Below are positions 32,177-49,114 of a DNA stretch of 64,000 bases, in pieces. Numbering within the stretch: the first letter of the stretch is position 1; the number at the start of each line of letters is the position of its first letter. The notes under the pieces were generated by a model that was not told the origin of the DNA, did not search any database, and saw only the letters and a list, made by a program, of their open reading frames with translations. The translations under genes were made by a program, and so were the position numbers. This DNA is from a bacterium (GTDB taxonomy: Bacteria > UBP14 > UBA6098), in assembly GCA_003645085.1 (NCBI GenBank), contig QNEE01000001.1:1282-65281 (forward strand), written 5' to 3'.

Positions 32177-32229
32177 ACAGTTATATATACCGAATTACTT
32201 GCTATCAACGAAATGAGGAGGAGATAACG

Positions 32230-35200
32230 ATGAAACCGAGGTGCATTTTTATTCTGTTTTTCTTATCGGCTTTGTCCATCGTCGGGTCGGTTACGTTTTC
32301 TAATCTCGGCGAGGAGTTTTTCCTTTGCTATCCTGGTAACGCCTGTCGCGAAACCGGAGGTAACCCGGTTCCGTTTTACAACGGTCAGATAATCCTGACA
32401 TCGACAGTCGCGACTATCGGGACTGTCCAGACGCGCACAGGGAGTTTTCTGGAGGAATTTACGATTCCGGCTTACGGAACCGCTACTGTCAGTATCGACT
32501 CTACGTTATGGCTCAGAAACTCCGAATATGTTTATGACCGTGGATTATCGATACGGGCGGCGGATACTATCGCGGCTTATTTTCTGTCATACGAGGAGCC
32601 GGGAGCTACAAACGATATGACTTTACTATTTCCGGTTCAGAGCCTTGGACAAGAGTATCTCGTTATGTGTTGGCGGGACAATATACCAACCTCCGGTTAT
32701 TTCCCGCACATTTTGAACCACGGCCCGAGTATGTTTGCTATTGTGGCGCCGTTCGATGGGACGCATATAACAATTACACCCTCGGTAACCACAGAGGGCG
32801 GTCATGCTGCCGGCGTTCCGTTCGATATTACTCTCGACGCCTACGAGGCATATCAGGTTCTGGCGAATTCGCCTTCGATTAGCGACCTTTACGACCTTAC
32901 GGGTTCGGAGATATTAGCCGACAAACCTGTAGCGGTATTTGCTGGTAGCCAACTCGCGTTTGTCCCGGATACGATTTTTGCGGCGGACTATCTTATCGAA
33001 CAAATCCCGCCTTTGACGGCGTGGGGTAAGAATTTCAACGCTTTCCCAATCGAGGGCAGGAATTGTTGGGAAAAGGATGTTCTAAAGATACTCGCTTCAG
33101 AAGATGCTACAACGGTTAATCTGGAAGATGCAAGCGGCGACACGATTATTCACCTCGACCGTGGAGAGTATTTCGAATGGAATGGTTATCCGTGCGACCC
33201 GGGGAATTACGTTCCTCTCGGCGGTTACGCCGCGGACTGCGAGGGTAAATTAATGGACAGCCCGACACGTATCGAATCCGATAAACCTATTCTTGTAGGG
33301 CAATTTATTACTGGCGGTGTCCTGACGAAATGCAATCCCGGTATATCCGGCTCGGGAAGCACGCCCTATGGCGACCCGGCATATATGATGATTCCTCCGG
33401 CGGAGCAATACGGCAAGCGATACGTATTCCTTATTCCCCCCGGCTACACTAACGACTATCTGAATGTCGCGATAGAGGGTGGTTACGAGGGGACGGTTAC
33501 GTTGGACGGCGGTCCGCCGACCTTCAGCACGAGCTGGTTCGATATCCCTTCGACTTCTATGCGCGGGGCACGTATCGAGGTCGACCCCGGAAACCACGTG
33601 CTTTTGGCCGATACGACTATGCTCCTGCAGATTTACGCATTCGACGACTACTGGGCGTCATACGCTGCTGTCGGCGGTCAGAAAATAGCGATAATCAACG
33701 CGGCATACGAGATAGTTAAATTCTGCGAATTAACACCTGCAATAAGCGGCTATAATACGCGGTGGCGCATAGTGTTAAGGCAGGTTATCGGGACAGGTTC
33801 GCATTCTATTACTATAGGCGATACTCTCCCGCCGGACTTTACTTTAAGTTCGACGCCCGTCGATATACAGCTTTTCGGTTCCGCGACACGCGATTCCGTT
33901 CTCGAACCGGTTCCGGGGGATAGTATCCTCGTATGGGGCTGGTTCAGTATGGAGGCTGAAGACTCGATAGTCATTACGTTCGACGCCGACATTCTCATCG
34001 GTGTCGAGGGCAGATTCGACAACGGCGTCTGGATAGCGAACGAATATGGCCTAAAAGCGGATAACGCTTACGGCTTGATGGACAGTCTCGACGATGTAGT
34101 CGTAATTATGCCTCCGATGCCTATCGCTGACGCTGGACCGGACACCTTTACAATGGCCGGAACGAGTATAAATATCGGCGGAAGCCCGACCGCGAGCAGC
34201 GGCACACCGCCATATATAATCGAGTGGACGAGCGACCCTGTCGGTTTCACCAGCAGCGACGCCAACCCGCTGGTTTCGCCCGCGGGATTAACCGAATATA
34301 TCGTTTGTGTAACGGATTCATTCGGGTTCTTCGATTACGACTCCTGCATTGTCGATATCACTATGGAAGAGAGGCATATCGAGTTCGGGATTGCCGACGG
34401 TTATCCGTGCGACATTGTGTATATCCCGCTCTATATCGATAGTATTCACTACTGTAGTATCGATAGTGCATGGATGCGTTTCGCGGTGGACCCGGATATT
34501 CTTACTCCTACGAATATTATTGTCTCGGGAACGATGACGGACGCGTGGGCAGTCTCCGGATTGAATATCGACGCGACATCGGGAACTATCGAGGCCTGGA
34601 TTCACGGCCCGAGGCTCGCCGATTTACCGGGAGGGATTCTGCTTATGCTGGAGGCGAGTATCGATTGTGAGGCTATCGGCGGAACGAGCAGCCCGGTCGT
34701 GGTGGACAGTTTCTTTTTCAACGACGGCCAACCGGCGGTAACCTGGTCACCCGGAATGTGTTTCGTGCAGCTTACGCCGGCACGTTTTTCCTGTGATATC
34801 AGACTCAATCGAACATCGGGGGTTCCGACGGAAGACAATGTGTTCACTATCGGTGCTACACACGCCGCTACCGACGGTTACGACGCCGGTCTCGACTGGA
34901 TTCTCGTGCCCGCACCTGCAACGTTCGTTCAGGGATTGCTGGATATCGACGACACGTTAAATCCGCATATCGAGGCGCTTCGGAAAGATATGCGTGATGT
35001 TTCTCCGCCCAAAACATGGCTTCTTATAACCGAGGGCGAGTCGAACGGCGTTGCACGGTGGTCGCCGGCGAGCTTGCCTGAAGGAGTTTTCCGTATCGAC
35101 GGCCTTGTCGATATGAAACGTGATACGATGATTTATTTCGGCCTCGACGATACGCTCGTCATAGAGTGGCTTGTGCCGGAATTGGAATCGGCAGGATTGA

Positions 35201-36282
35201 CGCTCTATTCCGGCTGGAATATGGTCAGCAGCCCGGTTCATCCGGCCGAGATACCGGCTAACGAGATATTCCACACAGAGTTTGGTGTGTTCCGCTATCT
35301 CAGTTTGGCGTGTTGTTATGATTTCGCCGACCTTATTCAGCGGGGAGAGGGCTATTGGGTCTGGTGTCCGGCGGAAACGACTATCTATATAGCGGGTAGC
35401 GAGATAACCGGTTATCGCTGGTCGGTCTATCGTGGGTGGAACCTTATCGGCGCGCCAAAAGAATGCGTATCGACTGCGGATATCGATATTACGCCGTCCG
35501 GCGGGATTCTCGGCGATATATATCATTGGGACGGCTCGACCTACATCGCTGTCGATTCGCTTTGCCCGGGCAAAGGTTACTGGCTGTTGAGCAACAACGA
35601 GGGAATATTACACGTTCCGACGGGGTATCGCCGGAGACCGTCTCCCGTTCCGGAAACTGTCTGGGAAACGGCGTTGACGCTTAAATTCGGCGATTCGATA
35701 GAACGGCTTTCGATTGGTTACGCGCCGGACGCTGCTTCGGGTCTCGGTTACGGCGATATCGCGCTGCCACCGGTTCCGCCGAATTCGGATGGTTACCTAT
35801 GTGCGCTTGTCGCCGACGGCATCCAGCTTGAGAGAGACTTATCGCCGGACAATCGTTGGGAATTGAATAACACGGAACAATGTGATATGAGTTTGGATAT
35901 CCCGGACGATATGAATATTCTTGTCGACGGTATCGAGATTACAGATGGTGTTCCTGTTCCACTTTCTGTCGGACGGCATATAATAGTCGCGTTAGCGGAG
36001 CGTCCGGAGAAATTCGCGGTTCTCGGTTGCGTTCCTAATCCGTTTAACGCGCAGACGGATATTGTAGTTGCGATTCCCCATAATGGGGCTGTTTTCGTGG
36101 AGATGTTCGACCTTTCGGGGCGCTCGGTATGGAGTGCCGAAAGCGATTATCCCGCCGGTATTGTCCGAATACCCTGGAAGGGTGAAGACCACACCGGTGC
36201 CGGAGTTTCGACCGGCCTTTATCTTGCCCGCGTTACATTCGCGGACGAGTCGATTGTCGTGAAGGCGATGTTTATAAAATAA
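32230..36282 (+). CDS. Large (1350 aa) secreted cell-surface protein with PKD/Ig-like region and T9SS C-terminal domain.
   Basis: Signal peptide MKPRCIFILFFLSALSIVGS. Internal PKD-like segment (…PIADAGPDTFTMAGTSINIGGSPTASSGTPPYIIEWTSDP…). C-terminus …VPNPFNAQTDIVVAIPHNGAVFVEMFDLSGRSVW…GLYLARVTF…KAMFIK is a T9SS CTD. AGGAGG RBS. Confidence 0.75.
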   Translation: MKPRCIFILFFLSALSIVGSVTFSNLGEEFFLCYPGNACRETGGNPVPFYNGQIILTSTVATIGTVQTRTGSFLEEFTIPAYGTATVSIDSTLWLRNSEYVYDRGLSIRAADTIAAYFLSYEEPGATNDMTLLFPVQSLGQEYLVMCWRDNIPTSGYFPHILNHGPSMFAIVAPFDGTHITITPSVTTEGGHAAGVPFDITLDAYEAYQVLANSPSISDLYDLTGSEILADKPVAVFAGSQLAFVPDTIFAADYLIEQIPPLTAWGKNFNAFPIEGRNCWEKDVLKILASEDATTVNLEDASGDTIIHLDRGEYFEWNGYPCDPGNYVPLGGYAADCEGKLMDSPTRIESDKPILVGQFITGGVLTKCNPGISGSGSTPYGDPAYMMIPPAEQYGKRYVFLIPPGYTNDYLNVAIEGGYEGTVTLDGGPPTFSTSWFDIPSTSMRGARIEVDPGNHVLLADTTMLLQIYAFDDYWASYAAVGGQKIAIINAAYEIVKFCELTPAISGYNTRWRIVLRQVIGTGSHSITIGDTLPPDFTLSSTPVDIQLFGSATRDSVLEPVPGDSILVWGWFSMEAEDSIVITFDADILIGVEGRFDNGVWIANEYGLKADNAYGLMDSLDDVVVIMPPMPIADAGPDTFTMAGTSINIGGSPTASSGTPPYIIEWTSDPVGFTSSDANPLVSPAGLTEYIVCVTDSFGFFDYDSCIVDITMEERHIEFGIADGYPCDIVYIPLYIDSIHYCSIDSAWMRFAVDPDILTPTNIIVSGTMTDAWAVSGLNIDATSGTIEAWIHGPRLADLPGGILLMLEASIDCEAIGGTSSPVVVDSFFFNDGQPAVTWSPGMCFVQLTPARFSCDIRLNRTSGVPTEDNVFTIGATHAATDGYDAGLDWILVPAPATFVQGLLDIDDTLNPHIEALRKDMRDVSPPKTWLLITEGESNGVARWSPASLPEGVFRIDGLVDMKRDTMIYFGLDDTLVIEWLVPELESAGLTLYSGWNMVSSPVHPAEIPANEIFHTEFGVFRYLSLACCYDFADLIQRGEGYWVWCPAETTIYIAGSEITGYRWSVYRGWNLIGAPKECVSTADIDITPSGGILGDIYHWDGSTYIAVDSLCPGKGYWLLSNNEGILHVPTGYRRRPSPVPETVWETALTLKFGDSIERLSIGYAPDAASGLGYGDIALPPVPPNSDGYLCALVADGIQLERDLSPDNRWELNNTEQCDMSLDIPDDMNILVDGIEITDGVPVPLSVGRHIIVALAERPEKFAVLGCVPNPFNAQTDIVVAIPHNGAVFVEMFDLSGRSVWSAESDYPAGIVRIPWKGEDHTGAGVSTGLYLARVTFADESIVVKAMFIK

Positions 36283-36439
36283 GGGGATGCACCCGAAACT
36301 GCCCGGGGTGTGGGAGAAAAAAGGCGACCACACAGGGCCGTCTATTTTTCAATTAGTCGCGCGGCTCCGGCTACGCAACGCAATTGCGCGATAATCTAGT
36401 AGGTCGAGCGTATCGCTCGACTGCGCGTGATGCAGCCAC

Positions 36440-37788
36440 ACATAGTAAGACCCAATATTTACTAGGGCAATTAGAAATGGATGGGTCGATTACTTCCACA
36501 ACCATATCCTTGTCAAACTGTTTTCTTATGCATTGGTGTCTTCGCGAGGAGGTCATACAAGCGCTATCGAGAGAATCCGAGAAGACATAGAGCGATTAAA
36601 ACGAGAGCTCCAAAAATGATAACAAAACCAATTCAACGCAATCTTTTTGGTGAAGAACTCGTAATCGTTCCGGAAACGGAAGGCATTAAGTATGCAGGCT
36701 CGAAGCTCAAACTGATTCCTCATATCATTGAACTCGTCCGTGAGACGAATGCCAAAACCATCTTGGATGGATTTTCTGGAACTACTAGGGTGTCGCAAGC
36801 ACTGTCCCAGTTGGGTTATAGAATTATCGCGAATGATGTAGCAATATGGTCGAGGATTTTTAGTATTTGCTATTTGCTGAATAAACGCCCTAGAAGTTAC
36901 TACGAAAGCATTATTGCTCATTTAAATTCTTTATCTCCCAAGTATGGATGGTTCACGGAAAATTATGGAGGAGAACCAAACAACGGTTCTGCCTTACAGA
37001 AAGACGGTTTCAAAAAGCCCTGGCAAATACATAACACAATGAAATTAGATGCAATTCGTGAAGAAATTGAACGGATGGAATTAGACGAAATTACGAAAGC
37101 GGTCTTGTTAACGAGTCTTATCCTTGCTCTCGACTCCGTGGACAGCACAATTGGCCATTACTCCTCTTATTTAAGCAAATGGTCGCCGAGGTCTTACAAT
37201 CGAATGGTGTTGAGGGTGCCTAAAGTAATCGAGCAAAAGGAAGAGCATGTCGTCTTTCAGAATGATATATTTGAACTTCTTGATAAGATAGAAGCTGATA
37301 TAGCCTATTTTGACCCGCCCTATGGGTCAAATAATGAAAAAATGCCGCCATCGAGAGTAAGATACTCTTCGTATTATCATATTTGGACGACAATTATCCT
37401 GAATGACAGGCCGAAACTCTTTGGGAGGGCTAGGAGGAGGTGTGATACGTCCGACACTGTGGCAGCCTCTGTGTTTGAAGAGTTTAGGAGAAATCCTGCA
37501 ACTGGCAGATTTATTGCGGTAGAGGCGATAGAACGTATGATTACGCAAATTAAGGCAAAATACGTTATTTTATCTTATAGTTCGGGTGGACGAGCAACTG
37601 CAGAAGACCTACAAGATTCTATAAAAAAGGTCGGGAAATTACAGAAGGTTGTTGAAGTGAATTATCAGAAAAATGTGATGGCTTGTATGAAATGGACAAA
37701 TGAGTGGATACGGGAAGCAGAAAAACCTCATCGGGAGTTCTTATTTCTTATAGAAAAGTAATGTCTAACAAAGCCTTACGCCTAACTT
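36440..37788 (+). mobile_element. Low-GC genomic islet carrying an orphan Dam-like DNA methyltransferase (horizontally acquired; no integrase or transposase seen).
   Basis: Visibly AT-richer (~40% GC by eye) than the flanking ~58% GC genes. Bounded on the right by the 44-bp repeat copy A. Confidence 0.4.
36616..37761 (+). CDS. DNA adenine methyltransferase, alpha-class (Dam/D12-like), apparently orphan. Start assigned to ATG 36616; the ORF track starts at 36481.
   Basis: N-terminal Dam-like SAM-binding region (IKYAGSKLKLIP…ILDGFSGTTRVSQAL, compare Dam KWAGGK…FVGAGSV) and downstream catalytic motif FDPPYGS (DPPY). Confidence 0.75.
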   Translation: MITKPIQRNLFGEELVIVPETEGIKYAGSKLKLIPHIIELVRETNAKTILDGFSGTTRVSQALSQLGYRIIANDVAIWSRIFSICYLLNKRPRSYYESIIAHLNSLSPKYGWFTENYGGEPNNGSALQKDGFKKPWQIHNTMKLDAIREEIERMELDEITKAVLLTSLILALDSVDSTIGHYSSYLSKWSPRSYNRMVLRVPKVIEQKEEHVVFQNDIFELLDKIEADIAYFDPPYGSNNEKMPPSRVRYSSYYHIWTTIILNDRPKLFGRARRRCDTSDTVAASVFEEFRRNPATGRFIAVEAIERMITQIKAKYVILSYSSGGRATAEDLQDSIKKVGKLQKVVEVNYQKNVMACMKWTNEWIREAEKPHREFLFLIEK

Positions 37789-37832
37789 CTATTCCGCCGG
37801 CGCTTTATAGCGGCAGGTGAGCTTAGTCGTTG
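37789..37832 (+). repeat. 44-bp repeat copy A (ctattccgccggcgctttatagcggcaggtgagcttagtcgttg), 27 bp downstream of the Dam-like MTase stop.
   Basis: 40/44 identical to the reverse complement of 47068-47111. Confidence 0.8.
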
Positions 37833-37866
37833 TGTAACGAGAATAAGGCAAAAAACCGAGATAACT

Positions 37867-38628
37867 ATGAAATGTAAAATGCTGGTATTACCACTAATCA
37901 TTACCCTTGTATCGGCCTATAATGCGATGGTTTTCGCCGAGTCGCTCGATGCCGAGAGCATAGTCCGCAAGGTAGACAAGCTATACCGCCATGAATCGAG
38001 CTACGCTAAGATGGAAATGCAGATAACGACACCGCACTGGGAACGGACGCTCGAGATGGAGGCCTGGAGCGAAGGTTTGGACAAAACCTTCATCGTAATA
38101 AACTCCCCTGCGAAGGAAAAAGGCACCGCGACGCTCCGTATCGGCAACGAGATGTGGAATTACCTGCCGAAAACAGACAAGACTATGAAAATCCCGCCTT
38201 CGATGATGATGAGTTCGTGGATGGGCTCTGATTTTAATAACGACGACCTCGTTAAAGAATCCTCGATGTTCGAGGACTACACATACGAGTTTTTCACGCC
38301 GGATGTGGTCGAGGATAGCATCATCTACCTCGTGCTAATCCCGAAAGAGAACACACCGATTGTATGGGGCAAAATCGAGCTGGCCGTCCGCGAAAGCGAT
38401 TATCTCCCTGTCTGGCAGAAATTCTACGACGAGAAGGGCGACCTGATGCGCGTTATGAATTTTAAAGAGATAAAACAACTAGGCGGCAAAACAATCCCGA
38501 CCGTAATGGAGCTTATTCCTAAAAATAAGGAAGGCCACATAACGGTGATAAGATACCTCGATGCGAAATTCGATATAAAACTCGACGACGATACATTTAC
38601 CCTTAGAAACCTACAGAAAAAGAGGTGA
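37867..38628 (+). CDS. LolA-like outer-membrane lipoprotein-sorting protein family member (partner of the FtsX-type permease).
   Basis: Signal peptide. ~250 aa. Conserved adjacency to a MacB/FtsX-like permease gene. Sequence features of the LolA_like/DUF4292-type beta-half-barrel family (inferred, not a strong motif match). Confidence 0.55.
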   Translation: MKCKMLVLPLIITLVSAYNAMVFAESLDAESIVRKVDKLYRHESSYAKMEMQITTPHWERTLEMEAWSEGLDKTFIVINSPAKEKGTATLRIGNEMWNYLPKTDKTMKIPPSMMMSSWMGSDFNNDDLVKESSMFEDYTYEFFTPDVVEDSIIYLVLIPKENTPIVWGKIELAVRESDYLPVWQKFYDEKGDLMRVMNFKEIKQLGGKTIPTVMELIPKNKEGHITVIRYLDAKFDIKLDDDTFTLRNLQKKR

Positions 38629-38742
38629 TAAATTAATCGCCCCCACATCCTGCTGGGAATTGCATGGAAAAGGGCTGGCACGTGGGTCGGCACGCGCCGA
38701 CGGGCGGATGGTTTTTGCGCCCGGAATATAATGTTCCTAAAT

Positions 38743-38780
38743 CCTACCGGGCATAGCAAAAACCGTGACAGCCCGGTAGG
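38743..38780. repeat. Perfect 10-bp-stem inverted repeat (cctaccgggc…gcccggtagg, 18-nt loop) in the 203-bp spacer between the LolA-like and permease genes.
   Basis: Seen directly in the sequence. No T-run follows on the + strand, so it is not a canonical terminator. It could be an attenuator or a REP-like element. Confidence 0.5.
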
Positions 38781-38831
38781 AAACGCGCAAATAAAACTTA
38801 TACTTAATTTATACTTGTAACCATCAGAAAG

Positions 38832-40046
38832 ATGCTACTAAAAATAGCGTTCAGAAATATCCTCCGCCAGAAGCGCAGAAGCTTCTTCACAATCCTTTCG
38901 ATTGCCGTCGGGTTCGCGTTCGCCTCGATAATGATAGCCTGGCGAATGGGCTCGTTCAATCTGGTTATCGACAAATTCACCCGCGCGTATCTCGGGCATA
39001 TCCAGATACACGCCGACGATTACCTCGATAAACCCTCGCTCTATAAAAATATCTCGGACTATAAATCTCTCGGCGAAAAAATAATGTCCGTCGAAGGCGT
39101 CGAATCGTTGGCACCGAGGATGCTCGCCGCCGGTCTCGGCACTGTTGGCGAAAAAAGCACCGCAATCCAGATTACTGGCATCGACCCCGCGCTCGAAAAC
39201 AACGCCACAGGTTTCCAGAATAAAATCGAAAGCGGCGAAAACCTACCCGAAAAACCGTCGCATAAGGTAATTCTCGGCAAGGGCCTGATGCAAAACCTCG
39301 ACGCTGAAATCGGCGACGAGTTCGTTGTTGTGTCGCAGGCAGCCGATGGCTCGATAGCGAACGACATGTATGAAATCATCGGCGTCGTGGTAACTGGCAA
39401 CGAATACTCCGACCAAATCGGTGTATATATGCATCTTGCCGACGCGCAGGAGCTTATGGTTCTCGAAAACCGAATCCACGAAATCGTAGTCATCACAAAT
39501 GATATCCGCAAGGTCGATAAATACGCCGCGCGAATCGAAGAAAAACTCGCCAATCCCGCGCTCGAAATCCTCCCGTGGAAAAAGGTCAACGAGTCGTTCT
39601 ATAAGATGATAAAGGCCAAAGAGCAGGCACAGTCCATTATGCACATTGTCATTATGATAATCGTCGCAATCGGCGTGCTGAACACGGTGCTGATGTCCGT
39701 GTTGGAGCGAATCCGCGAATTCGGCGTGCTGAAAGCGGTCGGCACACGGGCCTCGCAGATTTTCAGGATGATTATCACCGAGGCCTTTATCCTTTGCCTC
39801 GTCGGAATCTTAATCGGTATCGCAATCGGCCTAGCGGTGAACTATCCGATGTCGCTGCACGGGATTAAAGTTTTCGATTCGATGGACATCGGCGGAGTTC
39901 AATTCGACACGCTGAAAAGCGAGGTCAACGCGAGAAGCATATACGAGCCCGCGATAATCGTGTTCTTGACCTCACTTATAGTCAGCATATACCCAGCACT
40001 CAAAGCGGCAAGAACCCGCCCGGCAAAAGCGATGCGTTTCCATTAG
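38832..40046 (+). CDS. ABC transporter permease, MacB/LolCE FtsX-domain type.
   Basis: MLLKIAFRNILRQKRRSFFTILSIAVGFAF N-terminal TM, large periplasmic domain, and three C-terminal TM helices with the FtsX signature (…LERIREFGVLKAVG…). No ATPase gene is adjacent. Confidence 0.85.
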   Translation: MLLKIAFRNILRQKRRSFFTILSIAVGFAFASIMIAWRMGSFNLVIDKFTRAYLGHIQIHADDYLDKPSLYKNISDYKSLGEKIMSVEGVESLAPRMLAAGLGTVGEKSTAIQITGIDPALENNATGFQNKIESGENLPEKPSHKVILGKGLMQNLDAEIGDEFVVVSQAADGSIANDMYEIIGVVVTGNEYSDQIGVYMHLADAQELMVLENRIHEIVVITNDIRKVDKYAARIEEKLANPALEILPWKKVNESFYKMIKAKEQAQSIMHIVIMIIVAIGVLNTVLMSVLERIREFGVLKAVGTRASQIFRMIITEAFILCLVGILIGIAIGLAVNYPMSLHGIKVFDSMDIGGVQFDTLKSEVNARSIYEPAIIVFLTSLIVSIYPALKAARTRPAKAMRFH

Positions 40047-40320
40047 GTAAAATGGTTTCACACTGGGAAAGGCGGACTACAGACCCACCGCTAAGCGATA
40101 TCAATCGACATCGGCTTGTCCTCATCGCTCTCCGCGCCATCGAATTAGCCCGGCATATTCGTAAGTTATTAAATAACAATGAAATATCCATTTCCACCCC
40201 GTAGCGGTTCGACGATAGCAAACCCGTCACGATGCCTCGGTCGCGGAAACTACGCCCTTACGGTTCGTTTCGCATTTGCATTTGTAGGGGTCGTTCGTGA
40301 GCGCCTCGGACGACTCTCTG

Positions 40321-40848
40321 CTACTTCAATCTTTCCAGCGGAACTGCGCATACCGATTTCCGGGCGCAACCTGCGCACATATCGCCGCACCAGATAAGCT
40401 CGAACAGCGAATCGACGCGGTCGATTATTATGTGGTTGTCGGTGATAATCCCGGCCTCGAAATTGCGCCGATTTTTCGATTTAGCGCCTATACCCGCACC
40501 GGTCAGGTTCGCCGAGCCGAGATAAAGCAGTCTGCCATCGGCGAGAATCGTTTTTTGGTGAACTCGCGGGCAGCGGCGCATCGAGAAATTGTTAATCGAC
40601 GCGAGTTTCGCGGTTTTTGCCTTTTTAAGGAACCATTCTGAGGGCACTCCCGAATGCAGGATTCGGACCGCGAGGCCGTTTTTCGCACGCCTTGCGAGGT
40701 AATCGACTATCGATTCGCCGCGTTTGCCGTGCAGGATTGTCAACGCTTTAACGGTTGCGGTGGCGATATCGAGGCGGCTTTTCGCGCCGGCGATTAAACG
40801 TTCGACAACTTCCGTATAGTGGCCGGCGTTTTCGACGAACTCGAGCAT
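40321..40848 (-). CDS. Phospholipase D superfamily single-HKD protein (Nuc-like endonuclease family candidate).
   Basis: HxKx4Dx6GSxN motif: HQKTILADGRLLYLGSANLT. 175 aa. No signal peptide. C-terminal Cys cluster CGDMCAGCARKSVC. Confidence 0.65.
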   Translation of the reverse strand: MLEFVENAGHYTEVVERLIAGAKSRLDIATATVKALTILHGKRGESIVDYLARRAKNGLAVRILHSGVPSEWFLKKAKTAKLASINNFSMRRCPRVHQKTILADGRLLYLGSANLTGAGIGAKSKNRRNFEAGIITDNHIIIDRVDSLFELIWCGDMCAGCARKSVCAVPLERLK

Positions 40849-41325
40849 TCAGTCGACTAAATAGAAGGTCGCGTTTTCGGTCTCGACCGGCGGCGACGAC
40901 AGAAGGAAGGCTTTAGCCTCGTATTTACCGAGAAAAATCCCTTTTTCAGAAATGCTCGTGCAATCCCAGACTGCGCGGAAACGTGCGGTATCGCCGGGTG
41001 CCAGCGTCGTGTGGGAAATAGTCTGTGCGCAGGCGATACCCTCGAGAGAATTCCAGATAGGATGGTCGTCCCGACTAACAACGAATCTCGATTTACAGGC
41101 GGTTGGAAATGTCAGTTCGATTGTTTTTTCAGAAAGGGAGGTGACGGTCATCAAAAACTCGATTTCGGAGCCGAGGACGTAAGCGGAATCGGATAGTATC
41201 AGGCTCGCGGCGATTTTGCGGTTTTCCGATTGCGCATTGTTGGCGGTTTTCGGTTTTTTCGAGGCGCAGGACATAAACAGCGCCGCTATTACTATGGTGG
41301 TCGAGATATTTTTCGCTATCTGCAT
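40849..41325 (-). CDS. Lipoprotein with BsuPI-like (intracellular proteinase inhibitor fold) beta-sandwich domain; hypothetical.
   Basis: Signal peptide plus lipobox (ALFMSC). Segment SEKTIELTFPTACKSRFVVSRDDHPIWNS…TLAPGDTARF resembles the BsuPI family pattern. Abuts the PLD gene with no gap. Confidence 0.45.
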   Translation of the reverse strand: MQIAKNISTTIVIAALFMSCASKKPKTANNAQSENRKIAASLILSDSAYVLGSEIEFLMTVTSLSEKTIELTFPTACKSRFVVSRDDHPIWNSLEGIACAQTISHTTLAPGDTARFRAVWDCTSISEKGIFLGKYEAKAFLLSSPPVETENATFYLVD

Positions 41326-41354
41326 TTTACGAGAATCACCTGTATAGATGGGAC

Positions 41355-41807
41355 TTACGACTCGTTTTTCTTGAGAGTATCGATAAAATCGCCGGCGTTT
41401 TTCGATTTGAGAATCTCCTCGCGCGTGACAGGATTGTTCAGGATTCTCGAAAGTTCTGATAGGATATGAACGTGGTCGCCCGAGCCGTTTTTGGGAGATA
41501 TCAGCAAGAAGAAAATCCGCGCCGGTTTGCCATCGACAGAATCGAACTCGATACCATCAGGAGAGAGCCCCGCGACCATTTTCGGCGAACTGATATCGTC
41601 CATCTTGGCATGCGGGATAGCGATACCGTAACCGACGCCTGTGCTCAGTATCTCCTCGCGTTCGAGAACGGCCGCGAGGATTTCATTTTTGATACGAAGG
41701 TTGTAGACCTCGCAGAGCAAATCCACAAGTTCGGTAATAACCGATGGTTTGTTTTCGGATTCGAGCGGTATTTTAACGCCCCTTCGGGGCAAGTAATTGG
41801 TAAACAT
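41355..41807 (-). CDS. ptsN: PTS EIIA-Ntr (nitrogen regulatory IIA).
   Basis: …ILSTGVGYGIAIPHAKMD… PTS_EIIA_2 active-site His region. 150 aa. Confidence 0.85.
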   Translation of the reverse strand: MFTNYLPRRGVKIPLESENKPSVITELVDLLCEVYNLRIKNEILAAVLEREEILSTGVGYGIAIPHAKMDDISSPKMVAGLSPDGIEFDSVDGKPARIFFLLISPKNGSGDHVHILSELSRILNNPVTREEILKSKNAGDFIDTLKKNES

Positions 41808-41979
41808 CCTTTTCCTTCGCTATAGAAATTTCAGGCAGCTAAATTACCTACGGAGTCTAGGAATGTCAAGATTTTCTTTCCTCTTTATGTAATATTAATA
41901 AAACCGATTTCGGGGAATTATTTAGATTTTCCAGATATACCGTTGACTTTGAGTTATAATTTCCGTATTTTTCCAAGAA

Positions 41980-42420
41980 ATGGAAGACAGAATGCTCGAC
42001 ATTGTGGTAATTCTCGCCGAGAGGTTCCGTCGGGACCGGAAGCTTTTCTCGAATCCGAAAAGTATCCGGGACGAGCTTATAGAAAGAGGATATATGCCGG
42101 AGGATATCGACCGAGCGATTCAATGGGCATCGAATAGCCTCGAATACCCGGTCGGCAATTCTACCAGGATTCTATCCGCTTACGAACGCTCGCAGTTTAC
42201 TTCCGACGGTTGCGGATTGCTCCTTAAGCTCAGAAATCTGGGGCTTTTGAACGACGAGCACCTGGAGCTTATTATCGCCAGGTCCATATTGATGGACGAA
42301 GGCCCGATTGACGCCGAGGGTATTCGCTCGATGGCTATGATTTTCCTTTTCGATTTGAAGAATCACGAGAGCGGATTTCCTATCTATCTTGATTCCGGCG
42401 GCGGCGACATCGAGAACTGA
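41980..42420 (+). CDS. smg: Smg family protein (DUF494).
   Basis: LDIVVILAERF…DELIERGYMPEDIDRAIQW matches the Smg N-terminal pattern (VLMYLFE…AGFEREDIYNALLWL). Confidence 0.7.
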   Translation: MEDRMLDIVVILAERFRRDRKLFSNPKSIRDELIERGYMPEDIDRAIQWASNSLEYPVGNSTRILSAYERSQFTSDGCGLLLKLRNLGLLNDEHLELIIARSILMDEGPIDAEGIRSMAMIFLFDLKNHESGFPIYLDSGGGDIEN

Positions 42421-42444
42421 CCGGTCAATAACCAGTGGGATAAT

Positions 42445-43224
42445 ATGTATAGAAGGTATAGATGGAGTATGGACGGATACGGCAGGACTCCTGTCGGCAA
42501 GGGCGTAATCGGTCTAATTGTCGCATCCGGGATTTGTTTTTTGATGCAAATGGCTTCTCGGCACCTTATCGACGTTTTCGTCCTCGACCCGTCGAGAGCG
42601 CTGCCGGAACTCAAGCTTTACCAATTGGTTACCTATATGTTCCTTCACGGCGGCTTCTTTCACCTTTTTATTAATCTATTCGTCCTGTATATGTTTGGTC
42701 GGGAACTCGAAGGTTTATGGGGAACCAGCAGGTTCTTATTCTACTATTTTGTCAGCGGCATCGGCGCGGGTCTTGTTACCGCACTACTTTCGCGCTATCC
42801 GGTTGTCGGTGCAAGCGGAGCCATTTATGGATTACTTTTGGCTTACGGCGTCCTGTTCCCGAACCGGACAATTTTACTCTGGTTTTTCATCCCGATGAAA
42901 GCGAAATATCTGGTAATTCTATTCGCGGTTCTGGAGTTTTTCGCGAGTATGGGTGGTGGGGGCGACGGTATCTCGCATATTACTCACCTTGGCGGTATGG
43001 TTTTCGGCGGAGCATTGCTCGCTATCTGGCATCTCGGGGGGACACTCAAGAGAAAACGCAGGATGTCCGTTATTCACGACCTAACCGGCGGACCCGCAAG
43101 CCCCGCGAATGTCGACCGTATTCTGGACAAGGTTTTGCGCGAGGGCGTCGAATCGCTGACCGAGGACGAAAAACGAATACTTATCCGAGCGGGAAAATTC
43201 TACCAGCGGGATACGCGCAACTAA
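42445..43224 (+). CDS. Rhomboid-family intramembrane serine protease.
   Basis: GASGAIYGLL (catalytic Ser), HLGGMVFG (catalytic His), multiple TM helices. Confidence 0.85.
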   Translation: MYRRYRWSMDGYGRTPVGKGVIGLIVASGICFLMQMASRHLIDVFVLDPSRALPELKLYQLVTYMFLHGGFFHLFINLFVLYMFGRELEGLWGTSRFLFYYFVSGIGAGLVTALLSRYPVVGASGAIYGLLLAYGVLFPNRTILLWFFIPMKAKYLVILFAVLEFFASMGGGGDGISHITHLGGMVFGGALLAIWHLGGTLKRKRRMSVIHDLTGGPASPANVDRILDKVLREGVESLTEDEKRILIRAGKFYQRDTRN

Positions 43225-43228
43225 CCAG

Positions 43229-44341
43229 ATGAAAAGCGACGTCCTCTATCTCCCACAACGTGGCCAACATAGCGAAATGGCGGCCTCTCTCGGCGAATTA
43301 CTTAAAAATATCGAACTACCCTGGGCGAAAAAGAAATCCCGCATCGGAATAAAACTACATTGGGGCGAACCCGGCAATAAGACCTTCCTCCCGCCGGATT
43401 ACGCACGCGCAGTCGCCGGGGATATACTACGCCGTGGCGCGAAACCTTTTATTTTCGATACTACAACCCTATATCGCGGCGAACGAAAAAACGCGATAGA
43501 TTCGCTTTGGGTCGCGCATAAGCACGGTTTCGATTACGGCACCACCGGCGCGCCGGTTCTTGTCGCGGACGGCGTCTCTAAGAGGGATACGATAGTAATC
43601 CCTGTTCCCGGAAATCCAATCCACCAGAAAACGGTGAAGGTTGCTTCACTTGTGGATTATATCGACGGGATAATCACGCTATCGCATTTTAAGGGGCATA
43701 TAGCTTCGGGTTTCGGCGGCGTAATCAAAAACATCTCGATGGGTTTCGCATCGAGCGCGACCAAACAGGTGATGCACGGCGATGTGAAGCCGGAACTCGA
43801 GCCGGAGAAATGCGATTTATGCGGGACCTGCGCTGAATTCTGTCCGGAAGGCGCGATAACTTTAAGCGATAAACTCCCGATAATAGACCTCGATGCCTGT
43901 ATCGGTTGCGGCGAATGTATCGCTATGTGTCCGACCTGTGCGTTGCGAATTCAGTGGAATGCGAGACCGCAGGCGTTTGTCGAAAAACTCGCCGAGACCG
44001 CCGCCGCAGTCTGCGAACGTACGAGTGGGCGAATGTTGCATATAATAGTGCTGGCGAATATAACCCGCGAATGCGACTGTATGCCCAAAAAGATGGAGCC
44101 GTTAGTTCCCAACCTCGGGGTATTGGTTGGTGCCGACCCGATAGCGCTCGACAGCGCGGCCTGCGACCTTTTTAACGGCGCGAAACCGTTTCCCGGCTCG
44201 GGTATTATGTTGGGCGCGGAAGATAAGCTCGAAGTCCTTTTCCCGGAAATCCCCTATCGCCGCCAGCTCGAATACGGTGTGGAATTGGGGATGGGTTCGG
44301 TGGAATATAATTTAATAAGAATTGGGAATAGGCGTGAATAG
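43229..44341 (+). CDS. DUF362 domain protein with two 4Fe-4S ferredoxin motifs.
   Basis: Two cysteine clusters: CDLCGTCAEFCP and CIGCGECIAMCP. DUF362-type N-terminal region. Confidence 0.75.
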   Translation: MKSDVLYLPQRGQHSEMAASLGELLKNIELPWAKKKSRIGIKLHWGEPGNKTFLPPDYARAVAGDILRRGAKPFIFDTTTLYRGERKNAIDSLWVAHKHGFDYGTTGAPVLVADGVSKRDTIVIPVPGNPIHQKTVKVASLVDYIDGIITLSHFKGHIASGFGGVIKNISMGFASSATKQVMHGDVKPELEPEKCDLCGTCAEFCPEGAITLSDKLPIIDLDACIGCGECIAMCPTCALRIQWNARPQAFVEKLAETAAAVCERTSGRMLHIIVLANITRECDCMPKKMEPLVPNLGVLVGADPIALDSAACDLFNGAKPFPGSGIMLGAEDKLEVLFPEIPYRRQLEYGVELGMGSVEYNLIRIGNRRE

Positions 44342-44365
44342 CGGGGTTTTCCCCGTGCTTTTCTC
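44342..44365 (+). terminator. Rho-independent terminator after the DUF362 gene.
   Basis: cggggttttccccg hairpin followed by tgcttttctcc. Confidence 0.6.
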
Positions 44366-44634
44366 CTCGTAAAAAGGGCTTCCTAAAGCGGAAGATGTTG
44401 CTTCTAAAATACTTTTCCGAGATTTCAAATTTCACCCCCTAAAAACTATATTGGACATACTAAAACCCGCCGGCCGTGGCGTTTTATGCTGTGAGTAGTG
44501 CGCCGGGAGTTGTGAGTCCCGCGCCACACTCTCCGCTCTTTGCTATTTTATATAGAGACATTCGTGCTTTTTTACCGTCTTTGTATCCTTCGCGTTAGAG
44601 AGCTATCTCGCTGCATAGGATACAGAATATCGTC

Positions 44635-45996
44635 TCAATCGAGTTTTTCCCTACGAAAAATCCGCGCCACTTTCCGCCACATACGTGCAACCGCACCGAC
44701 GGTTTTGAAATGGCTCGACCAGATTGTGCGATAAAGCGTCCCGCCGCCGATAGCGACCATCACGAAATTCGGTAACCACATAGCCAGCCAGGGTGCGATA
44801 AAACCGCGGTCGGCGAGTTCCTCACCTCCTATTAAAAACGCCCAGTAGATTACGATAAAACCGAGACCGAGGCCGATGCCGACGCCGAGACCACCTTTGC
44901 GCGCCCAAACCCCCACCGGTGCGCCTACCAACAAGAAGAAAACGCATGCGAAAGGTAATGTTATCTTTTTATGGATTTCGACGCTATATTTGCGAATATA
45001 ACGACGGTGTGCTTTGACTGTATTCATCTGGCTTTTTATTGCGTGGAGTGTCGATTCGACACGTTTTCGAATCGAGCGGTATATCATAGACGGGTCGGAC
45101 GGAGTGTTTTTTCCGGACGGGATAAACGCGGCGCGAAAGGCTTTGTCCGAAAACTCCACGATATTATCCATCGAGCGCGCGATTGCTGAATCTTTCGCGG
45201 CGATTCTCTCTTTCATATCCTCGATTGTGAGTTCGCGGTCGCCGCGATGGCCGCTGTCGCGTCTCTGGAGCTTAAAGCCCAGGTCGCTGAACCGGATGGT
45301 CTGCCTGTCGAAATTTACCCGTGTGTGTTTGCTGGGGTCCTGCTCGTCGATTTCGTGGATAACGCCGTCGTAAAGCTCGAGAATCAGCACATCGCTATTT
45401 TCGGAATAACTCATCTTGCCATATTCGGCCTGCACGATTCTCGGGATACGGCGGTCCTGCTGGTCGTAAATAGTTATTCCCCGGAGTTCGTTCGTTTTCT
45501 CTTCGACTTCTTCGATATAGAGGCCGACGCCCGGGAAATCGTCGATAAAAACCCTTTCTTTAATCGCGAGCGCCGGTTTTTTTCGTTTAATATCCCCCAT
45601 CAGCATCTTTGCCTCGTAGTTGGCTTCAGGGAGAACGGAATTAGAAAAGAAAATCATAAAAACGGATAGGATAAGCGCGACCCCGAGCGGAAGAAACATC
45701 AGGCGAACGAGCGGTATTCCCGAGCTGACCGCGGCGATAATCTCGCGGTCTTCGGCGAGCCTCCCAAAGGCCATCAATCCGGCGATTAGGCAGGTCATCG
45801 GCACCGCGAGAGCGAGCATCCACGCGAGGTTTAACGAAAATAATTTCAAAACGATAAGCGGTTCTACACCTTTGGCGATAATCAGGTTCAGAATATCGAG
45901 GATAAAGTCCATAACCAGAACGAACATAATTATCGCCAACCCGCCGATAAACGGCATCAGGTGCTCGCGAAGGATGTATTTAGAGAGTATTTTCAC
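44635..45996 (-). CDS. LPS export ABC transporter permease LptF/LptG (YjgP/YjgQ family).
   Basis: MKILSKYILREHLMPFIGGLAIIMFVLV…; six-TM topology with a periplasmic insert. Confidence 0.85.
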   Translation of the reverse strand: MKILSKYILREHLMPFIGGLAIIMFVLVMDFILDILNLIIAKGVEPLIVLKLFSLNLAWMLALAVPMTCLIAGLMAFGRLAEDREIIAAVSSGIPLVRLMFLPLGVALILSVFMIFFSNSVLPEANYEAKMLMGDIKRKKPALAIKERVFIDDFPGVGLYIEEVEEKTNELRGITIYDQQDRRIPRIVQAEYGKMSYSENSDVLILELYDGVIHEIDEQDPSKHTRVNFDRQTIRFSDLGFKLQRRDSGHRGDRELTIEDMKERIAAKDSAIARSMDNIVEFSDKAFRAAFIPSGKNTPSDPSMIYRSIRKRVESTLHAIKSQMNTVKAHRRYIRKYSVEIHKKITLPFACVFFLLVGAPVGVWARKGGLGVGIGLGLGFIVIYWAFLIGGEELADRGFIAPWLAMWLPNFVMVAIGGGTLYRTIWSSHFKTVGAVARMWRKVARIFRREKLD

Positions 45997-46023
45997 CAGA
46001 ATGAGGGCAGTTACGTTCGGTTC

Positions 46024-46656
46024 CTAAGTGCATAATTCTTTGACGCCGCTAAACGTTTTGCGATGTATCGGGCAGGGGCCGAGGGTTCTGATAGCTTCTT
46101 TATGCTTCCGGGTCGGATAGCCGGAATTTTGAGAAAAGCCGTAACCCGGGTAGTGAGTATCGAAATATGTCATCAGGTTATCTCGCGAAACCTTCGCCAC
46201 AATACTAGCCGCCGATATCGCAAGGTGCTTGCCATCCCCGCCGATTATGGTTTTTTGAGGGATTTTCGTAAATGGAATCCGCCGATTGCCGTCGATTAAA
46301 AGCATCTGCGGTTTCGTTTCGAGCGAGGATGCCGCTCGCGCCATAGCGAGAAGCGAGGCGTTCAAGATGTTGATTCTGTCGATTTCGGACGGTGTTACCC
46401 ACCCTACAGAAACGGCCACGGCTTTCGTTAGTATATAATCGAAAAGCTCCCGCCTTAATTTATTATGCAGGAGCTTCGAGTCGTTTATATATTCGGGGAC
46501 TTCCTTATAATCCCATATAACCGCGGCGGCCACTACGGGGCCCGCGAGCGGTCCGCGTCCCGCTTCATCCACCCCGGCGAATCTATAACCTTTGCGAAGA
46601 AGCTCTTTTTCCAGGTTAGAAAAGCCAACGCCGATTAGCCTCCGTGGTGAAGCCAT
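46024..46656 (-). CDS. rnhB: Ribonuclease HII.
   Basis: GVDEAGRGPLAGPVVAAAV motif. Directly downstream of rplS. Confidence 0.9.
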   Translation of the reverse strand: MASPRRLIGVGFSNLEKELLRKGYRFAGVDEAGRGPLAGPVVAAAVIWDYKEVPEYINDSKLLHNKLRRELFDYILTKAVAVSVGWVTPSEIDRINILNASLLAMARAASSLETKPQMLLIDGNRRIPFTKIPQKTIIGGDGKHLAISAASIVAKVSRDNLMTYFDTHYPGYGFSQNSGYPTRKHKEAIRTLGPCPIHRKTFSGVKELCT

Positions 46657-46657
46657 C

Positions 46658-47011
46658 TCACTTTTTTGCTCTCTTTTCTTTAACTTTAGCGGCCTTGCCC
46701 TTTTTCTTGCGGAGATAATATAGTTTAGCTCTACGGACCTTACCGTGCTTAATAATCTCTATTTTCGTAACGTTAGGCGAATGGATAGGAAAAACTCTTT
46801 CGACACCGACTCCGCCGGAGACCTTGCGAACGGTCATCGTCTCGGTCGAGCCGCTGCCTTTCCGGCTGAGGACTATCCCCTGAAAAGCTTGGACACGTTC
46901 CTTGTCCCCTTCTTTAATGCGAACATGGACCTTAACCGTGTCGCCCGGACCAAACTCGGGCAATTCCTTAATTTGCGATGCGGTTACGTTTCTGATTATT
47001 GCGTCGGACAT
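46658..47011 (-). CDS. rplS: 50S ribosomal protein L19.
   Basis: [52 protein letters not shown]…. Confidence 0.95.
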
Positions 47012-47067
47012 TTTAATCTCCTCCTCCTATGATAAAAGCCTACTTTTCTTTATTCTAGATTTTATTC

Positions 47068-47111
47068 CAACGTCTAAGCTCACCTGCCGTTATAGAGCGC
47101 CAGCGGAATAG
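47068..47111 (-). repeat. 44-bp repeat copy B (caacgtctaagctcacctgccgttatagagcgccagcggaatag), the inverted copy of A. It lies 20 bp downstream of the beta-class MTase stop codon on the minus strand.
   Basis: 40/44 identical to the reverse complement of 37789-37832. Same position and orientation relative to its MTase as copy A. Confidence 0.8.
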
Positions 47112-47130
47112 CAGTCAGGTGGGGCGTTTA

Positions 47131-48174
47131 TTATGTGTTTATGTCACTTATATCTATTAATTCGTATTCAGGCTTAGGAGTAAAAAGGTCTCCTTTTAAT
47201 GTCTCTATTTTCTTGATAGTTGCTTTTATTGCATGTTCTGATTTATCTATACCAATCCACTTTCTACCAAGTAAATGAGCAGATTTTAATGTAGTTCCTG
47301 ATCCACAGAAGCAATCTAATACAATACTTTTACGATTGGACGATGTTTTGATAATTAAATCTAACATATCAGAATTCTTTTCTGTTGGATACGTTGGATA
47401 TTGTGGGTCTTTAAACTCCCAAATATCCTGAACTCTTTTACCTTCTCTTTCATCGGCAAAAATAATCTTTCTTGGGTTACCCGTCTTTGACCATTCAATA
47501 AGCCCTTCTTTATCCCATTGTTCAAGTGTTTCTACATCTGTTCTCCAATGTCTTCCTTTAGGAGGTAGCATTCCTTTAAACGGTTGGTTAGATTTACCGT
47601 TTTCCGTTTCACCTGGAGCATGTATGGGAACCGTTGTATATCTTCTTCCCTTTTCTATTTTTGGAAATAGTTTTTTTAAGTCATCTTCAGAGTATTTTTC
47701 TCTAGGTTCATTCCAAATCGGTTCCTGTGATTTTGTATAAAATAGAATAAGGTCTTTAATATTGCCATATCCTATTCTATTAAAGTTTTTAGGGTTACAT
47801 TTTATTCTTGTTATATCATTACGGAAATTTTCTATCCCAAATACTTCATCCATCATTACTTTTACATAATGTCCAATCTTATAATCAATATGAAGATAAA
47901 TTGACCCTTTATCTGTTAGCAACTCTTTTATTAACAGCAATCTTTGTCTTAAAAATTCGATAAAATCTTCTCCTATTAATTTATCAGAGTAAGCAATATC
48001 TCCATTTCGTGAATTACTTATTGTTGACGCTCTGCCATCAGTAATTGTAAAATTTCCATTTGTTGCAAATGGAGGGTCAATATACACTAAATCTATCTTT
48101 CCTTTTAAGTTTCTGGTGCTTAAAAGATATTTAAGACCTTCAATATTATCGCCTTTTATTATTATATTTTTCAT
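47131..48174 (-). CDS. Site-specific DNA methyltransferase, beta-class amino-MTase (N6-adenine or N4-cytosine).
   Basis: Motif IV LVYIDPPFATNG near the N-terminus. Motif I VLDCFCGSGTT near the C-terminus (beta-class circular permutation). Confidence 0.85.
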   Translation of the reverse strand: MKNIIIKGDNIEGLKYLLSTRNLKGKIDLVYIDPPFATNGNFTITDGRASTISNSRNGDIAYSDKLIGEDFIEFLRQRLLLIKELLTDKGSIYLHIDYKIGHYVKVMMDEVFGIENFRNDITRIKCNPKNFNRIGYGNIKDLILFYTKSQEPIWNEPREKYSEDDLKKLFPKIEKGRRYTTVPIHAPGETENGKSNQPFKGMLPPKGRHWRTDVETLEQWDKEGLIEWSKTGNPRKIIFADEREGKRVQDIWEFKDPQYPTYPTEKNSDMLDLIIKTSSNRKSIVLDCFCGSGTTLKSAHLLGRKWIGIDKSEHAIKATIKKIETLKGDLFTPKPEYELIDISDINT

Positions 48175-48185
48175 TATTTAAGAAC

Positions 48186-48977
48186 CTATAATTGGTAAAG
48201 GAATTCACGCAGAACTAAAGCACTCATGATATTATAATCTTGTAATTCTTCAGTTATTCTGCGATACATTTTATTTCTACCCTCAATATAGAGTACACCA
48301 TCTAATATTGCAACTTTAATTGCGTCAACATCTGTTGTTACTGTACTGACAGCATCGTTAAATTGGGCATTTTGATGCCCGCCAAAATCTGTTAAGAACT
48401 TTGCCTCCCCAATAACATATTGATTGTTGAATCTTGCCACAAAATCCAACCCTTTTTTATGATTATAGCCAAGATGCTCTCTTGCAAACCGCATCATCTC
48501 TGCATCTCCAGCATCTAATATGGCATTCTCATCAGAATTTATAAATTGTTCAAAAGGAATAGGCCTCACTCCAAGTACACCTCTATTCAACCATCTTCTA
48601 AATAATGGACCAATTTGTCTATTTGTTTCTTTTGGTTCTGAACATCTCTCATAAATTTTTTCTAATCCCATTTCATAAAGGCGCCCGCATAATCTATTAA
48701 CAGTTTGTGGATTTCTTTCTATTGCCGATTTGTCTCGTTTTAAATATGCAACATAGGAATCCTTGATTGGAAATAAATCAAACCTTAACAGTGTTTTTAG
48801 AAGTTCGATATTATTTTGACTATTGAAGTATTCCTCAACAGATTCCCATAATTCGTCATCAATATCTCTTATTCCTTCTGGAATAGTAGGATACACACTA
48901 AATAATTCGTCTAAGTAGTTTCTTTGATTAGCAAACTCAATACTTAATTGTGTCCAATAGTTCATAAATTTCTCCAT
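48186..48977 (-). CDS. Putative Type II restriction endonuclease (PD-(D/E)xK candidate) partnered with the MTase.
   Basis: 263 aa, no known housekeeping similarity. Possible catalytic …D…VIGEAKF (ExK) segment. Located immediately upstream of the MTase. Confidence 0.55.
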   Translation of the reverse strand: MEKFMNYWTQLSIEFANQRNYLDELFSVYPTIPEGIRDIDDELWESVEEYFNSQNNIELLKTLLRFDLFPIKDSYVAYLKRDKSAIERNPQTVNRLCGRLYEMGLEKIYERCSEPKETNRQIGPLFRRWLNRGVLGVRPIPFEQFINSDENAILDAGDAEMMRFAREHLGYNHKKGLDFVARFNNQYVIGEAKFLTDFGGHQNAQFNDAVSTVTTDVDAIKVAILDGVLYIEGRNKMYRRITEELQDYNIMSALVLREFLYQL

Positions 48978-49114
48978 TTGTTTTTACACACAATTCTTTA
49001 TATTTAACATTATCGGTAAATTCCTGCTAAATGTCAAGTCCGAGTAGAGAATTTTAATAGTATATTTCTGACCGTTTTTAAAGGGGGTATTTTCGCTTTC
49101 ATTATTTGGACTTA

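Follow-up and report, generated by a model that had tools for sequence, protein, structure and literature searches.

An inverted repeat beside rplS and a LolA-like gene very likely consists of the decayed attC sites of two independent integron-type cassettes

Introduction

The window considered here, i.e., the whole stretch of bacterial DNA that was analyzed (64 kb), contains a 44-mer at positions 47068-47111 (copy B) and its inverted partner at 37789-37832 (copy A). Copy B separates rplS, the gene of ribosomal protein L19, from a low-GC island with restriction-modification (R-M) genes. This arrangement raises the question of whether the two copies are the ends of a single mobile or invertible unit, a regulatory element native to the neighboring operons, or the remains of separate insertions. 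A preliminary description, based on the letters of the DNA and a list of open reading frames, had treated copies A and B as inverted repeats bracketing a 9.2-kb segment and had compared copy B to an insertion boundary or att-like site. For L19 and for an IgGFc-binding protein, the nearest named homologues belong to Zixibacteria (71% and 51% identity, respectively). According to the analysis presented here, copy B is very likely the attC site of an integron-type cassette encoding a Tsp45I-family endonuclease and a methylase, and copy A the attC site of a second, independent cassette of the same attC family.

Results

The inverted repeat and its surroundings

The repeat pair was readily confirmed. 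A 38-nt core is present on opposite strands with three mismatches, and 100 dinucleotide-preserving shuffles of the sequence yielded no match. Ungapped extension led to arms of 52 nt (37781-37832 and 47068-47119, 88% complementary) spaced by 9235 nt, which is the top-ranked inverted pair of the 64-kb window. Only two copies of the 44-mer were found in the 64 kb, both by repeat search and with covariance models. Copy B lies between rplS (46658-47011, minus strand) and the gene of an N6_N4 methylase (47131-48174, minus strand), and gene positions and GC content bear out its location at the junction of rplS and the low-GC R-M island. Each copy is situated directly 3' of the methylase gene of one low-GC island and is oriented like the genes of this island. 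A native, co-directional start codon follows 35-57 nt past each copy, namely that of the LolA-like gene at 37867 (plus strand) and that of rplS at 47011 (minus strand).

The functional unit is longer than the 44-mer. Covariance models extend it back to the methylase stop codons, and positions 47068-47111 correspond to the 3' arm and the loop of attC site B. Only the 44-mer had been noticed before, because the 5' part has diverged in both copies. The two sites resemble an inverted repeat because the two cassettes lie on opposite strands.

An attC family in distant lineages

The 22-mer CGGCAGGTGAGCTTAGNCGTTG of the attC 3' arm was searched exactly in one genome per species. Seven matches were obtained, five of them in different phylum-level lineages (Gemmatimonadaceae, Sumerlaeota, Cyanobacteriota, Deltaproteobacteria, and Ardenticatenia) and the remaining two in Hippea and in one MAG labelled 'bacterium'. 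Judged by sequence, this is one attC family spread across very distant lineages. The family element has a length of approximately 72 nt, as exemplified by GCCTAAC-AAGGC-GCT(G)CACCTG(A)CCGCTAT-loop-ATAGCGGCAGGTGAGC-TTAGTC-GTTGGGC. Its consensus comprises an R'' box (RYYYAAC) paired with an R' box (GTTRRRY), an unpaired spacer of 5/6 nt, an L box as the second paired box, whose 5' arm includes two unpaired bases, and a variable loop. In published work (PMC11641012), attC sites are described as having an R box and an L box, a central spacer that stays unpaired, a terminal structure that varies, and two to three extrahelical bases; the bottom strand is cleaved at AAC. The family consensus agrees with this anatomy of an integron attC site. 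In an alignment of 22 family members, which was fitted to the model, 90.5% of the cells were paired and 18 out of 23 pairs showed changes on both sides; slid controls of the same alignment reached 28-38% paired cells. The AAC/GTT pairing was invariant in 21 of the 22 members. An early reading of R'' as 'CCTAAC' or 'CCTGAC' inside the 52-mer was discarded, since the cross-phylum alignment places R'' approximately 20 nt further 5', at the stop codons.

Elsewhere, family members occur in same-strand arrays with small co-directional ORFs in between, as detected with the covariance model (nine sites in locus L014, six each in L020 and L029, three in L031). A Pfam scan of the larger ORFs revealed no integrase in L014 and L020 (8 kb each). 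On the Citrobacter plasmid pLNU-11 (NZ_KX863568.1), a family site with a score of 68.5 bits is located within a cassette array. A truncated integron-integrase gene (TIGR02249, E 1e-60), broken up by IS4/IS5 elements, lies divergent from this array. About 500 nt upstream of the family attC, the same plasmid sequence (L116, 3156-4481) carries the gene of a group II intron reverse transcriptase/maturase, which runs in the opposite direction.

Two attC sites in the window and their decay

Model R2 was built only from 26 sites of other genomes, and the window sequences were left out. Within the window, it identified the following two sites and nothing else credible:

37761-37835, plus strand: attC site A, 75 nt (R2 45.3 bits, E 1.5e-10; R1 74.2 bits)
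47065-47138, minus strand: attC site B, 74 nt (R2 52.1 bits, E 1.5e-12; R1 74.4 bits)

A weak R2 match at 7805-7991 (17.7 bits) was rejected as spurious; it lies inside a 5158-aa ORF (6925-22401, minus strand) that contains many internal direct repeats and most of the direct-repeat families of the window (D1-D6).

On the minus strand, attC B consists of a degenerate R'' box (ACATAAT), an L'' arm with two unpaired bases, a loop, an L' arm, and R'. The R'' box overlaps the stop codon of the N6_N4 methylase, as is the case in L029 and L031. R' reads GTTGGAA, of which the G at 47071 is the cassette end and TTGGAA is contributed by the target; six target-derived bases at the end of R' are the expectation for an integrated cassette. 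The GTT is intact, and the AAC of R'' is mutated to AAT. In attC A, the R'' box GTCTAAC is found 0-3 nt past the stop codon of a D12 methylase, R' is GTTGTGT, and both AAC and GTT are intact. The crossover point of attC A falls between G 37829 and TT 37830.

Both copies have kept the family layout, with five to eight non-standard pairs each. The stable bottom-strand hairpin expected of attC was not found for either site: the bottom-strand ssDNA of A folds with -7.6 kcal/mol (z +0.4) and that of B with -7.5 kcal/mol (z about 0), which is no better than shuffled sequence. The bottom strands of array members in L018, L020, and L029 form the canonical hairpin with -16.2 to -18.0 kcal/mol (z -2.2 to -4.6). 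We read copies A and B as decayed members of the attC family rather than as non-members. Compared with the family consensus, attC A has decayed on one side only: its 5' arm has about eight substitutions, whereas the 28 nt of its 3' arm are free of them (37764-37800 vs 37811-37832). This one-sidedness is milder in attC B, where AAC changed to AAT and stem mismatches are present. The asymmetry could be due to chance, to gene conversion of one copy by the other, or to selection that acts against a hairpin ahead of native genes. An occupied strain (L013, around position 2141; JGI 3300013103) carries an A-to-T substitution in the 3' arm of attC A (GGTGA to GGTGT); attC A is therefore still accumulating substitutions within the population. 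Present-day activity of both sites is doubtful because their hairpins fold no better than shuffled sequence. They are probably fossils, weak or dead as recombination substrates.

A two-gene R-M cassette upstream of rplS

The DNA next to copy B is organized as follows, in the direction of transcription:

48994-49037, minus strand: promoter-like site (TTGACA-17-GATAAT, 49037-49009) and left junction (A at 48994)
47071-48993, minus strand: complete integron-type two-gene cassette of 1923 nt, consisting of leader, endonuclease gene, methyltransferase gene, and attC B; GC about 0.30
48186-48965, minus strand: Tsp45I-family type II endonuclease, 259 aa (Pfam PF06300, E 1.8e-125)
47131-48174, minus strand: N6/N4 DNA methyltransferase, 347 aa (Pfam PF01555, E 2.2e-42), with its stop inside the R'' box of attC
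46658-47070, minus strand: rplS (46658-47011, Pfam PF01245) and the remaining native leader (47012-47070)

The GC content of this island (island 2) is 0.27-0.36, compared to about 0.50 in the flanks. An alternative upstream ATG of the endonuclease gene at 48977 would extend the protein to 263 aa. The cassette leader comprises 28 nt, starts with TTGTGTG, and has no promoter-like site of its own. Homologues of the endonuclease with 75-90% identity are encoded in many phyla. The recognition sequence of Tsp45I-type enzymes is GTSAC. In L029/L030, L031, and L033/L034, an endonuclease of 83-89% identity is followed by a methylase and, at the stop codon of the latter, by a family attC, and all of these Tsp45I-type units are located inside arrays of further attC sites.

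The cassette starts with TT and ends with the G of R' (47071). The R-M cassette of L029 begins with TTATGTGTAAAAATAAACGGAG, right behind an attC that ends with ...ggtcG; in the window, the homologous TTGTGTGTAAAAACAAATGGAG directly follows ...aaagaA. Homology to the L029 cassette begins exactly at TT, so that the cassette in the window has its left end at 48993. As to the contents of these arrays, the R-M cassette lies beside ThsB-TIR cassettes in L033 (1048-2078) and beside DUF433/DUF5615 toxin-antitoxin-like cassettes in L029 (1-9318); both arrays are defense-rich.

Empty and occupied alleles of the rplS leader

An identical L19 protein is encoded in eight contigs. Six of them carry the R-M island together with the repeat, and two (L004 and L005) lack both. 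In their flanks, the latter two are 98.9-99.2% identical to the occupied sequence, with one 280-nt stretch of L005 at 100%. In these contigs, the gene of a C25 peptidase is directly followed by rplS without a cassette, and 1936 nt of the window stand where L004 has 20 nt. The preliminary description had proposed to compare the rplS 5' flank among relatives free of the island and had named persistence of the 44-mer there as the sign of a native regulatory element. The 44-mer is absent from these relatives. By this comparison, the repeat belongs to the imported DNA and not to the native rplS flank, and the earlier view of copy B as an insertion boundary or att-like site can be made precise: the boundary is the attC that closes an inserted R-M cassette on its 3' side.

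The empty allele reads ...AAATATAAAGAG/TTGGAATCTAG... in L004 and L005 (AAAGAG/TTGGAAT around the insertion point, which is marked by the slash), and the occupied allele ...AAATATAAAGAA/TTGTGTG...cassette...GCTTAGACG/TTGGAATAAAATCTAG... The right junction, GCTTAGACG/TTGGAAT (GACG/TTGGAAT), is as predicted for insertion at a GTT site. At the left junction, AAAGAA/TTGTGTG, all occupied strains have an A where a G was predicted and where the empty allele has the G. This A could be a later SNP between strains differing by about 1%. The alleles also differ by indels of 12 nt and 5 nt beside the junctions. Taken together, the junctions appear to fit an integrase-type insertion at a GTT site in the rplS leader.

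The 12 extra nucleotides of the empty allele consist of a duplicated AAATATAA plus CGGC. They create a 10-nt identity, TATAACGGCA, between L004 (2237-2246) and the interior of attC B (window 47085-47094), which takes in the two private substitutions of attC B. By estimate, the probability of such an identity by chance is roughly 0.003. It might have been left behind by an earlier event or by an excision that was imprecise.

The sequence TTGACA-17-GATAAT is the top match of the region, with 11 of 12 positions agreeing with the promoter consensus; it is a consensus match only. The insertion point is located 15 nt downstream of its -10 hexamer, inside the rplS leader, and the same promoter-like sequence is found approximately 85 nt upstream of rplS in the empty-site contigs L004 and L005. 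The native leader remaining in front of rplS starts with the TT of the target GTT and is common to the empty-site strains apart from the 5-nt indel. From this arrangement we infer that the endonuclease gene, the methylase gene, and then rplS are probably co-transcribed from the resident promoter-like site. The placement of attC A before the LolA-like and FtsX genes is alike, with 37 nt from the crossover to the start codon.

A second, truncated cassette

The other low-GC island (island 1) lies on the opposite strand upstream of the LolA-like gene:

36470-37761, plus strand: island 1, read as a 5'-truncated R-M cassette; GC about 0.40
36616-37761, plus strand: D12-class N6-adenine methylase, intact, 381 aa (Pfam PF02086)
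36470-36619, plus strand: remnant of a partner gene, last 50 aa only, with stop codons upstream

The closest relative of the methylase (77% identical) is found in L035, where an attC-like site is situated downstream of the methylase gene and a 288-aa ORF overlaps its start (ATGA). The remnant in the window is 62% identical to the C-terminus of this ORF. The gene ahead of the D12 methylase in L035 presumably encodes the restriction endonuclease, and island 1 can be regarded as an R-M cassette that was 5'-truncated into an orphan methylase. A 426-aa ORF starting at 36481 was dismissed as an artefact of the remnant region; the called gene has 381 aa. The left edge of island 1 was likewise rejected as a cassette boundary, as it falls inside the truncated partner gene. 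No empty site was found for island 1: all five contigs with an identical LolA-like protein carry the D12 methylase. Among 80 loci of D12-methylase homologues, attC was present at two, which indicates that this methylase family is mostly not cassette-borne.

Discussion

Origin of the two sites

Both copies are single attC sites without an integrase nearby (SALINs); in the window and in the short related contigs, the genes up to 10 kb to the left and right of each site include no integron integrase. For the R-M cassette upstream of rplS, we infer the following course from the alleles and junctions. A circular cassette would have been captured by an integron integrase. Recombination by this enzyme would have taken place between a GTT ('attG'-type) site of the rplS leader and attC, the latter in the form of its folded bottom strand. 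The product would be a cassette extending from TT through attC up to its G. Having no promoter of its own and being placed directly past the resident promoter-like site, it would be transcribed together with rplS. Copy A very likely derives from a second cassette with a D12 methylase, acquired independently, which later lost most of its restriction gene. Both sites have gathered mutations that break their hairpins.

The 9.2-kb segment between the sites

The segment between A and B has native GC and carries housekeeping genes. The preliminary description had taken A and B for the two ends of one unit bracketing these 9.2 kb; this was not supported, as each copy terminates a separate, independent cassette. 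It had also proposed a test for both orientations of the segment. In contigs from six metagenomes, the A-type site led into the LolA flank in six of six cases and the B-type site into the rplS flank in seven of seven, so that all 13 junctions show one arrangement and none is a hybrid. The second orientation was not found in these related contigs; since assemblies report only the majority orientation, rare flipping may still occur. A recombinase gene was not present among the genes in or beside the segment.

The gene order of the region points to an inversion. In three relatives (L19 74-82% identical), ffh-rpsP-khpA-trmD-rplS-rnhB-lptFG are colinear on one strand. In the window (31442-49114, trmD to C25 peptidase), the block rplS-rnhB-lptFG is reversed with respect to trmD, the place after trmD is taken by a 1350-aa IgGFc-binding/T9SS gene, and the two cassettes lie at the ends of the reversed block or close to them. 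An inversion did take place in this lineage. It is conceivable, though rather unlikely, that the two inverted attC sites themselves recombined, either by integrase or by homologous recombination over 52 nt, and thereby inverted the 9.2-kb core-gene block and split the ancestral trmD-rplS operon; in a stronger form of this proposal, the block still flips. The reversed block with cassettes at or near both ends, set against the colinear trmD-rplS-rnhB-lptFG of the relatives, speaks for it. However, a 14.8-kb inversion with breakpoints after trmD and after the C25 peptidase gene, extending over the IgGFc gene and island 1 as well, gives the same gene order without attC sites. This larger inversion agrees with the empty-site strains, whose C25 gene is already next to rplS with no cassette in between. 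The absence of hybrid junctions and the decayed hairpins of A and B further argue against recombination between the two sites. A comparison of the breakpoints was limited by the trmD-rplS spacers of the relatives and the flanks of a 62% identical IgGFc homologue, which are too divergent or non-coding. If the attC sites did recombine, essential rplS would have been left dependent on transcription through the R-M cassette, and stray cassettes would have restructured a chromosome outside any integron in a natural case.

Regulatory element or transposon

Two further explanations were considered, and both are highly improbable. Copies located 35-57 nt upstream of native start codons, in the direction of these genes, could be a native regulatory element common to rplS and the LolA-like operon (promoter, operator, terminator, or leader RNA), yet the element is absent from the rplS leader of the island-free strains and also follows unrelated genes in other phyla. 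No Rfam match was obtained in the window or the locus, even at E<=1, RNA folds of both strands of both intergenic regions were no better than those of shuffled sequences, and no promoter or terminator consensus is present within the copies. A search for tRNA and tmRNA in the window found none. For practical purposes, the empty-site allele can be considered to refute the regulatory reading. Terminal inverted repeats of a transposon, or dispersed repeats of the REP/MITE type, would agree with an inverted, partly palindromic, intergenic pair and have about the same negligible probability, given that the segment and its vicinity contain neither a transposase nor an integrase, that the segment has native GC and conserved housekeeping synteny, that family members elsewhere form same-strand, ORF-separated arrays and not inverted pairs, and that the strain-polymorphic insertion is the 1.9-kb cassette and not the 9.2-kb segment.

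Significance and comparison with known systems

With the two attC sites, a previously unexplained repeat can be annotated as two integron cassettes stranded outside an integron. The site upstream of rplS would illustrate, in a clean natural case, the attG route described recently, with both alleles coexisting in environmental populations. Placement of a cassette at a resident promoter-like site in the leader of an essential ribosomal gene suggests promoter capture. The aftermath is visible as well, in the decay of the attC hairpin in both sites and in the loss of the endonuclease in one cassette, which leaves an orphan methylase. The lineage is related to Zixibacteria, in which integron biology is barely described. 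The current understanding of integrons is unchanged by these results; attC sites and SALINs are an already known kind.

The integron integrase IntI inserts cassettes at genomic attG sites with the consensus 5'-GWT-3' (Loot et al., bioRxiv 10.1101/2022.09.11.507474). Cassettes inserted at attG are expressed when located near a resident promoter, and single-attC SALINs are abundant (bioRxiv 10.1101/2022.09.11.507474). The window shares with these insertions the isolated ORF(s) plus attC without an integrase or a second attC nearby, a target GTT that fits GWT, a resident promoter-like site just upstream, and the existence of empty and occupied alleles. In contrast to them, it is a natural case in an uncultured relative of Zixibacteria, with a two-gene R-M cassette in the leader of an essential ribosomal gene, its attC sites are decayed, and its left junction has an A instead of the expected G.

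With the attC sites of chromosomal integrons and CALINs, the window copies have the R box, the spacer, the L box with unpaired bases, and the variable loop in common, and members of the same family are located in arrays (L014, L020, and L029) and by an intI remnant (pLNU-11). The window copies differ in being solitary, on opposite strands, and 9.2 kb apart, and their bottom strands fold with about -7.5 kcal/mol, whereas the array members reach -16 to -18 kcal/mol.

Small type II/IV restriction systems have been reported to be prevalent in integrons (integron defence paper). A compact type II R-M system as a cassette is shared with the window, whereas the cassettes described here are located outside any integron and one of them has no endonuclease and is left with an orphan methylase. 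In work by Furuta, Abe & Kobayashi in NAR in 2010, R-M insertions were reportedly linked to inversions. The window resembles such cases in that R-M units border a block whose orientation differs from that in other genomes. The boundaries in the window differ from them in being attC sites, which points to an integrase-type insertion, and a causal role of the R-M units in the inversion is a candidate only.
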